From assembly GCF_003334405.1 (NCBI RefSeq), contig NZ_QOWM01000003.1: a DNA stretch of 64,000 bases. One strand, written 5' to 3'. A program made the position numbers and the translations under genes. This document shows, piece by piece, positions 25,558 to 26,192 of the stretch; within the stretch, counting starts at the first letter, position 1; each line of letters opens with the position of its first letter. The notes beneath the pieces are model-generated. The model was not told the origin of the DNA, made no database searches, and saw nothing but the letters and a program-made list of their open reading frames with translations. The DNA comes from Escherichia coli (GTDB lineage: Bacteria > Pseudomonadota > Gammaproteobacteria > Enterobacterales > Enterobacteriaceae).

Positions 25558-25729
25558 AAAGTAGATTCCTTTACGACCGAATATATTGCGTTAGATTAAT
25601 AAATATTCTTTAAGTGCGAAAAATTTACGCGCAATTTCTGAAAAATATGTCTGACGGTAACCAAATGCAGCAATACATTTGTTTTAGCAATACAATTGCT
25701 GCACACTATTCTAAAAGCCGCATAATATC

Positions 25730-25741
25730 TTAGCAAGCTAA
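25730..25741. promoter_or_regulatory. SlyA operator palindrome overlapping the slyA ribosome-binding site
   Basis: TTAGCAAGCTAA is an exact match to the published SlyA consensus palindrome, 11 bp upstream of the slyA ATG; a second related inverted repeat, TTAGCAATACAATTGCTG, lies at about 25684..25701. Confidence 0.75.
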
Positions 25742-25757
25742 TTATAAGGAGATGAAA

Positions 25758-26192
25758 TTGGAATCGCCACTAGGTTCTGATCTGGCACGGTTGGTGCGCA
25801 TATGGCGTGCTCTGATAGACCATCGCCTGAAACCGCTGGAGTTAACACAAACCCATTGGGTTACGTTACACAATATCCATCAGTTACCTCCAGACCAGTC
25901 GCAAATTCAACTGGCAAAAGCGATTGGCATCGAGCAGCCATCACTGGTCCGTACTCTGGACCAACTGGAAGAAAAAGGGTTAATTTCGCGTCAAACTTGT
26001 GCCAGCGATCGTCGGGCTAAACGTATTAAACTGACGGAAAAGGCAGAGCCGCTGATCAGCGAAATGGAAGCTGTTATTAACAAAACCCGCGCGGAAATAT
26101 TACATGGCATCTCCGCAGAGGAACTGGAGCAACTGATTACGCTCATCGCAAAACTTGAGCATAATATCATTGAGTTACAGGCCAAAGGGTGA
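25758..26192 (+). CDS. slyA: MarR-family transcriptional regulator SlyA, 144 aa (TTG start; alternative ATG at 25752 gives 146 aa)
   Basis: (M)[78 protein letters not shown]... winged-helix MarR fold. Confidence 0.93.

Follow-up and report, generated by a model that had tools for sequence, protein, structure and literature searches.

In the stretch of Escherichia coli DNA analyzed in this study (64 kb in full length, referred to as the window), the region 25321..26706 comprises ydhI on the minus strand, slyA on the plus strand and slyB on the minus strand, flanked by ydhJK and anmK. The ydhIJK genes are divergent to slyA and slyB is convergent, and the same neighbors were found in the Yersinia and Hafnia loci. 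Of 5426 complete E. coli genomes, 5424 contain the 661-nt slyA region, and the 101 nt surrounding the start codon (25700..25800) show 100% identity in nearly all of these 5424 genomes, K-12 MG1655 included. The encoded protein matches the NCBIfam equivalog NF002926 over its full length (278.7 bits; cut-off 120), with residues 1-143 of the TTG-start SlyA aligned to profile positions 1-143 of 144. It is ~90% identical to the crystallized Salmonella SlyA; the PDB matches are 3q5f, 3deu, and 4aih. We are highly confident that the region is the one already known to control slyA in cis and to initiate its translation, with a SlyA operator and a UUG start codon at 25758. The following features are referred to below:

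25321..25557, minus strand: ydhI, leading the ydhIJK efflux operon, which is divergent from slyA and co-regulated by SlyA
25591..25602, no strand: second published candidate SlyA site TTAGATTAATAA, 9/12 match, in the ydhI-proximal intergenic part, low conservation
25684..25701, no strand: upstream inverted repeat TTAGCAATACAATTGCTG, 6-3-6 palindrome specific to Escherichia, within a conserved promoter block
25707..25712, plus strand: -10-like TATTCT, with the operator 17 bp downstream
25708..25713, no strand: conserved ATTCTA, in 72/81 species, belonging to TATTCT on the plus strand and read as TAGAAT on the minus strand
25736..25708, minus strand: -10-like TAGAAT with -35 TTGCTA (25736..25731), 17-nt spacer, -35 inside the operator
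25721..25726, plus strand: putative -10-like CATAAT, 3 bp upstream of the operator, TATAAT in 57/81 species
25730..25741, no strand: SlyA operator TTAGCAAGCTAA, perfect consensus palindrome, its center lying 22 bp upstream of the TTG
25745..25751, plus strand: Shine-Dalgarno (SD) sequence UAAGGAG, -9.3 kcal/mol for pairing with the 3' end of 16S rRNA
25752..25754, plus strand: in-frame ATG abutting the SD sequence, part of the spacer between SD and start, not the start codon
25758..25760, plus strand: TTG initiation codon of slyA, by RefSeq annotation, orthologues and a published N-terminal peptide
25758..26192, plus strand: slyA coding sequence, 144 aa plus stop, MarR-family regulator

Further observations were made in the neighborhood. 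The start of ydhI is itself ambiguous: it is annotated as GTG at 25557 (78 aa), and codon 4 is an ATG in the same frame (25548..25546, minus strand). Between the convergent genes slyA and slyB, a 12-bp GC-rich hairpin, GCGTGTGGTCAG-TAAC-CTGACCACACGC, is located at 26203..26230, which is probably a shared bidirectional terminator of both genes. In E. coli O7:H4 MIN14 (locus L089, ~437..1134), the divergent promoters are set apart, and the block of operator, SD sequence and TTG is intact. An Rfam scan of 25300..26400 returned only below-threshold, chance-level snoRNA matches and no known RNA element in the leader. Folding of candidate slyA 5' leaders gave nothing remarkable in structure, with folds that depend on the assumed transcription start site.

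For slyA, two in-frame start codons had been proposed from the sequence, namely ATG at 25752 resulting in 146 aa and TTG at 25758 resulting in 144 aa, and both were confirmed as possible. An SD spacer of ~5-9 nt is optimal for initiation in E. coli, and initiation is lost when the spacer is very short. The best duplex with the anti-SD sequence leaves a spacer of 0 nt to the ATG and of 6 nt to the TTG, and therefore the SD sequence favors the TTG; the proposal that GGAGA is better placed for the ATG thus had to be dropped. Upstream of the ATG, a scan for anti-SD duplexes detected no SD-like pairing at a usable distance. Also, RefSeq annotates slyA from the TTG.

The comparison with orthologues points in the same direction. 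AAGGAG was invariant in 80/80 close and 7/7 distant orthologues. Among the close orthologues, the start codon is TTG in 79/80 and ATG in 1/80, and the arrangement TTAGCAAGCTAA-TTAT-AAGGAG-ATGAAATTG is almost invariant in the 80 Enterobacteriaceae loci, with variation at nearby downstream synonymous sites. The upstream in-frame ATG is conserved in 78/80 Enterobacteriaceae. In Cedecea sulfonylureivorans (L042), a 1-nt deletion brings the upstream ATG out of frame and an ATG is found at the position of the TTG (1501..1503), while in the metagenomic lineage UBA5654 (L074) the ATG is replaced by AGG and the TTG is kept. None of the 80 close orthologues keeps the ATG without the TTG. The seven distant orthologues, obtained by homology search and contig look-ups, are those of Yersinia, Serratia, Hafnia, Photorhabdus, Edwardsiella, Sodalis, and Moellerella. 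All seven show AAGGAG(G/A) followed by 6 nt, the start codon and then GAA-TC, and in none of them is an ATG present in the spacer. Their start codon is TTG in 6/7 and GTG in 1/7 (Serratia; in Serratia proteamaculans, L083, at 401..403). In-frame stop codons are located upstream at -3 (Serratia), at -15 (Yersinia) and also at -21/-27 in distant orthologues, which rules out an N-terminal extension there. The curated SlyA HMM as well as the crystallized SlyA and RovA constructs begin at the M-E-S position. Judged from these alignments, the weak near-cognate start codon appears to be ancient, though it was not retained in every lineage.

The question has also been answered by published experiments. 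In a deformylation-assisted N-terminomics study of E. coli K-12 (2026), slyA (b1642) is listed as a database-annotated TIS with the start TTG, and an 11-residue N-terminal peptide of SlyA (residues 1-11 of 144) is reported together with exact Ribo-RET and INRI-seq support (PMC13245402 Table S1). The 60-nt slyA context given there is identical to the window. A methionine at the position encoded by TTG is only possible by initiation at this codon. The table contains a single slyA row and no upstream-start entry for this gene, in a dataset of limited depth; since the peptides in the table retain internal lysines, a 13-residue peptide starting at the AUG (fMet/Met-KLESPLGSDLAR) would have been detectable. 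Exchange of UUG for AUG in E. coli increased SlyA more than 5-fold (PMC3173223), a result by McVicker that, taken alone, also fits the new AUG simply being a better start. For Salmonella slyA, the TTG start was established by Kawakami 1999, in the words of the citing paper (PMC11347178). The sequence-only reading had held that the start used may differ from annotations choosing the TTG, and had itself named a single start matching the annotation as the outcome deciding against this; published initiation profiling has found just such a start (PMC13245402). The ATG-start suggestion is refuted by geometry, comparative data, and the published peptide and Ribo-RET evidence, and the ambiguity of the slyA start codon is already answered in the literature, in which the UUG start is known.

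These data also bear on other roles that the ATG might have. That it is the true or main start, with a 146-aa SlyA and wrong TTG annotations, has next to no chance of being correct: the codon is in frame and conserved in 78/80 Enterobacteriaceae, many database entries have 146 aa (e.g. Salmonella P0014, Klebsiella P0072, and Enterobacter P0065) and AUG is intrinsically stronger than UUG, but the SD spacer is 0 nt, none of the 7 distant orthologues has the ATG and stops in frame occur at -3 and -15, Cedecea and UBA5654 have no in-frame ATG, the Met peptide lies at the TTG position with exact Ribo-RET/INRI support (PMC13245402), Salmonella slyA is cited as starting from TTG (Kawakami 1999, as referred to in a later paper), and the NCBIfam profile begins at the TTG residue. 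Dual use, in which the UUG would yield the major 144-aa form and the AUG a minor one of 146 aa, is very unlikely as well. The lack of a spacer between SD sequence and AUG argues against it, as does the one slyA N-terminus row in an ArgC-type dataset able to show an AUG-start peptide. The conservation of the AUG in Enterobacteriaceae is strict, but the whole leader is invariant, so that this conservation is not specific to the AUG. Ribo-seq poorly resolves starts located 6 nt apart (PMC13245402), which leaves room for such a form, and the FLAG-tagged Klebsiella orthologue KvrA appears as a doublet on Western blots; the authors attribute this doublet to modification, and a difference of 2 aa is unlikely to yield a resolvable doublet. 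Finally, the AUG abutting the SD sequence may be a lineage-specific tuning element, either as a decoy or competing codon that depresses or conditions initiation at the UUG, or as the source of a rare 146-aa proteoform; start selection dependent on IF3 or growth rate could be an example. This AUG is absent from Yersiniaceae, Hafniaceae, and Morganellaceae and invariant in 78/80 Enterobacteriaceae, as is the whole 5' leader, and we consider a tuning function improbable. Initiation at the UUG at 25758 is the reading used in the following.

The second element of the region is the operator. The palindrome TTAGCAAGCTAA was found at 25730..25741 as claimed, ending 10 nt (25742..25751) before the ATG at 25752..25754. 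In the 64-kb window it is the sole match to the 12-mer with at most 1 mismatch (0.23 expected), and an exact match is ~37 times rarer than this expectation. Looser matches with up to 3 mismatches were not enriched in the window (39 found vs 52 expected). The site fits the consensus in 12/12 positions and also TTA-N6-TAA, a test that is partly circular, as the published consensus was drawn in part from slyA-promoter footprints. The sequence is exactly conserved in 78/80 other enterobacterial species. Its position is retained in Yersinia, Serratia, and Hafnia with 1-2 mismatches, and in the set of distant orthologues the operator is found at -28..-17 in 5/7 with 1-3 mismatches. In Sodalis, an operator-like 9/12 match is displaced to -38, and in Moellerella no operator match was detected.

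The identity of this site has been reported before. For E. coli PslyA, TTAGCAAGCTAA located "22 bp upstream of slyA" is listed as a high-affinity SlyA site (Curran 2017 Table 3, PMC5797941), and this distance fits a start at the TTG at 25758. In EMSA, SlyA binds a 200-bp E. coli slyA-ydhI fragment (Curran 2017, PMC5797941). The assignment of the 12-mer as SlyA operator in front of slyA is supported by this listing. The same table contains a second PslyA candidate site "161 bp upstream of slyA" (PMC5797941 Table 3), corresponding to TTAGATTAATAA at 25591..25602. The operator had also been described as overlapping the ribosome binding site (RBS); it is indeed close to the RBS, but it ends 4 nt before AAGGAG and the SD core is not overlapped. 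The palindrome as an RNA-level control of the RBS was rejected, as SlyA binds DNA and the SD core stays outside the palindrome.

Upstream of the operator, several promoter-like elements were detected. The operator is located 3 bp downstream of a conserved TATAAT/CATAAT hexamer and 17 bp downstream of TATTCT. From the conservation of these hexamers and the analogy to Yersinia, we infer that in E. coli the operator probably lies at or just after +1. A promoter scan of the region gave a single match on the minus strand (TTGCTA/TAGAAT), in which both elements are conserved and which could drive ydhI, in which case SlyA would occlude it directly. The operator as -35 element of a ydhI promoter was rejected as a candidate; it is a consensus match only, and the -35 of Salmonella ydhI is reported near a different 9/12 site (PMC6401476), which in our alignment lies at ~-104 from the slyA start. 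The promoter hexamers of E. coli are weaker than those of most relatives, with CATAAT vs TATAAT (57/81 species) and TTAGCA (25684..25689) vs TTGGCA, the commonest form; TATAAT is present in E. albertii and E. whittamii. For slyA, the promoter of E. coli is reported to have a ~10-fold lower SlyA-dependent output than that of Salmonella (PMC6401476), and the weaker hexamers may underlie this difference.

The inverted repeat TTAGCAATACAATTGCTG lies within this promoter region. A second inverted repeat about 40 bp further upstream had been noticed from the sequence and is present, at a distance of 43 bp from center to center; as a conserved operator, however, it did not stand, being perfect in 7/81 species. 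Its arms have only 6 bp (AGCAAT and ATTGCT around ACA), and it matches the SlyA consensus in 9/12 positions. The perfect palindrome is essentially confined to the genus Escherichia among the 81 aligned species. The half-site TTAGCA is found in 9/81 and TTGGCA in 20/81, and TTGAGA or TTGGGA also occur elsewhere, Salmonella included. The E. coli TTAGCA aligns with the -35-like TTGGCA of other genera, a 5/6 match to the -35 hexamer, and the conserved blocks CATTTGTTTT and TGCACACTATTCTAAAA flank the repeat. The palindrome also contributes to a 9-bp inverted repeat with arms at 25666..25674 and 25695..25703. In the same conserved promoter block, a 13-nt direct repeat AGCAATACA(T/A)TTG was observed at 25669..25681 and 25686..25698, 17 bp apart, which together with ATTGCTGCA (25695..25703) gives rise to alternative inverted repeats. 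Based on these comparisons, the repeat at 25684..25701 probably belongs to the promoter rather than being a SlyA operator.

Taken together, these elements suggest the following model. The palindrome at 25730..25741 is the high-affinity operator of the SlyA dimer, a winged-helix protein of the MarR family. It is placed between the -10-like hexamers and the SD sequence, and probably either at the transcription start or just downstream of it. There, SlyA would sterically hinder RNA polymerase on the DNA and thereby establish a negative feedback; relief would come from aromatic carboxylates, e.g. salicylate. As SlyA acts on DNA, the nearness of the operator to the RBS is incidental and has no translational meaning. 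Translation begins 6 nt after UAAGGAG, at the UUG at 25758; lacking a spacer, the AUG at 25752 is unable to enter the P site of the SD-bound 30S subunit. SlyA levels are held low by the weak UUG codon.

Two alternatives concern the operators and the sign of regulation. A role of TTAGCAATACAATTGCTG (25684..25701) as an additional SlyA operator, cooperating with the main site, is unlikely. Both sites have the half-site TTAGCAA in common (9/12), their distance of 43 bp corresponds to ~4 helical turns, and TTAGCAATACAATTGCTG lies inside the fragment that served as positive control in the SlyA EMSA. On the other side, the repeat is perfect in 7/81 species only and the half-site differs elsewhere, Salmonella included; its 3' end reads CAA, at variance with TTA-N6-TAA; 9/12 matches occur at or below chance in the window; the region resembles a -35 element; and Curran 2017 names a different second candidate at 25591..25602 (PMC5797941). 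With regard to the sign of regulation, the autorepression proposed from the sequence was shown for Salmonella and Yersinia, whereas E. coli slyA is reported as being under positive autoregulation and not dependent on H-NS by Corbett 2007, according to the title cited in PMC5797941. The operator may mediate a net positive autoregulation in E. coli or an activation of the divergent ydhIJK promoter, e.g. by displacing another repressor, which we consider possible but rather doubtful. Besides the title of Corbett 2007, this is favored by the 2.2-fold increase of ydhIJK transcripts upon SlyA overproduction in E. coli (PMC5797941), opposite to the result with Salmonella in vitro, and by the fact that SlyA usually activates by counter-silencing H-NS, but the same title also states independence from H-NS. 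Against it stands that, in vitro, slyA is repressed 5.3-fold and ydhI 19-fold by purified Salmonella SlyA on a template of nearly the same sequence, and that salicylate relieves this repression (PMC6401476). Furthermore, Curran 2017 infer a damped slyA transcription in multicopy (PMC5797941), autorepression in Yersinia goes through the homologous site, and the operator is placed downstream of the -10-like hexamers. Negative feedback at the operator is the preferred but tentative reading for E. coli.

Operator, UUG start and the effect of the UUG on the SlyA level were all published previously, and very little in this region is new. What is of practical use concerns the databases, in which 144-aa and 146-aa SlyA/KvrA entries are mixed; the distant orthologues lacking the AUG support standardizing on the UUG, Klebsiella kvrA included. 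In protein collections, SlyA was found with 144 aa, with 146 aa (Salmonella, Klebsiella, Enterobacter, Citrobacter) and with implausible 181-230 aa (entries P0002-P0004, P0014, P0050, P0052, and P0072), so that starts are annotated inconsistently in this family. Which sign autoregulation takes in E. coli, and whether the weak hexamers account for the low slyA expression there, are modest questions that are already framed in the literature.

The closest known system is slyA of Salmonella enterica (Stapleton 2002; Kawakami 1999; Will 2019), in which the operator 12-mer, TTAT, AAGGAG, and ATGAAATTG are identical (L026, L032). The neighborhood is also the same (ydhIJK divergent, slyB convergent), and the proteins are 89-91% identical. 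In contrast, the promoter block differs, with CATAAT and TTAGCA in E. coli vs TATAAT or CATAAT and TTGAGA in Salmonella, as does the reported sign of autoregulation. For Yersinia pestis, the RovA Site 1 footprint extends from -39 to -6 relative to the TTG, lies downstream of both mapped promoters and was read as autorepressive (PMC3180457); RovA lowers rovA transcription 4-fold. This footprint covers the homologue of the E. coli 12-mer (-28..-17), at the same position relative to the TTG. Yersinia rovA also has a TTG start located 6 nt after AAGGAGG, but unlike E. coli no ATG in the spacer. In Yersinia, Site 1 differs from the operator at 2 positions (CTAGCACGCTAA in Y. aldovae), is of low affinity and serves autorepression, while rovA autoactivation proceeds via a distant high-affinity Site 2 with no evident counterpart in E. 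coli. In Klebsiella pneumoniae, the slyA orthologue kvrA shows the same SD-AUG-AAA-UUG arrangement, and its AUG/UUG ambiguity is discussed explicitly in PMC11347178. The gene is annotated from the AUG in strain SGH10, whereas the peptide-level evidence for the start is that of E. coli. Pairing of the sRNA OmrB with the kvrA/slyA mRNA is reported at +81..+88, as is the doublet of KvrA-FLAG (PMC11347178). In a wider sense, slyA has in common with loci of the marRAB/emrRAB type a MarR-family dimer, an intergenic palindrome beside an efflux operon and relief by salicylate. Unlike the regulators of that type, SlyA is also a genome-wide counter-silencer of H-NS, whose level is additionally limited at translation by its UUG start.
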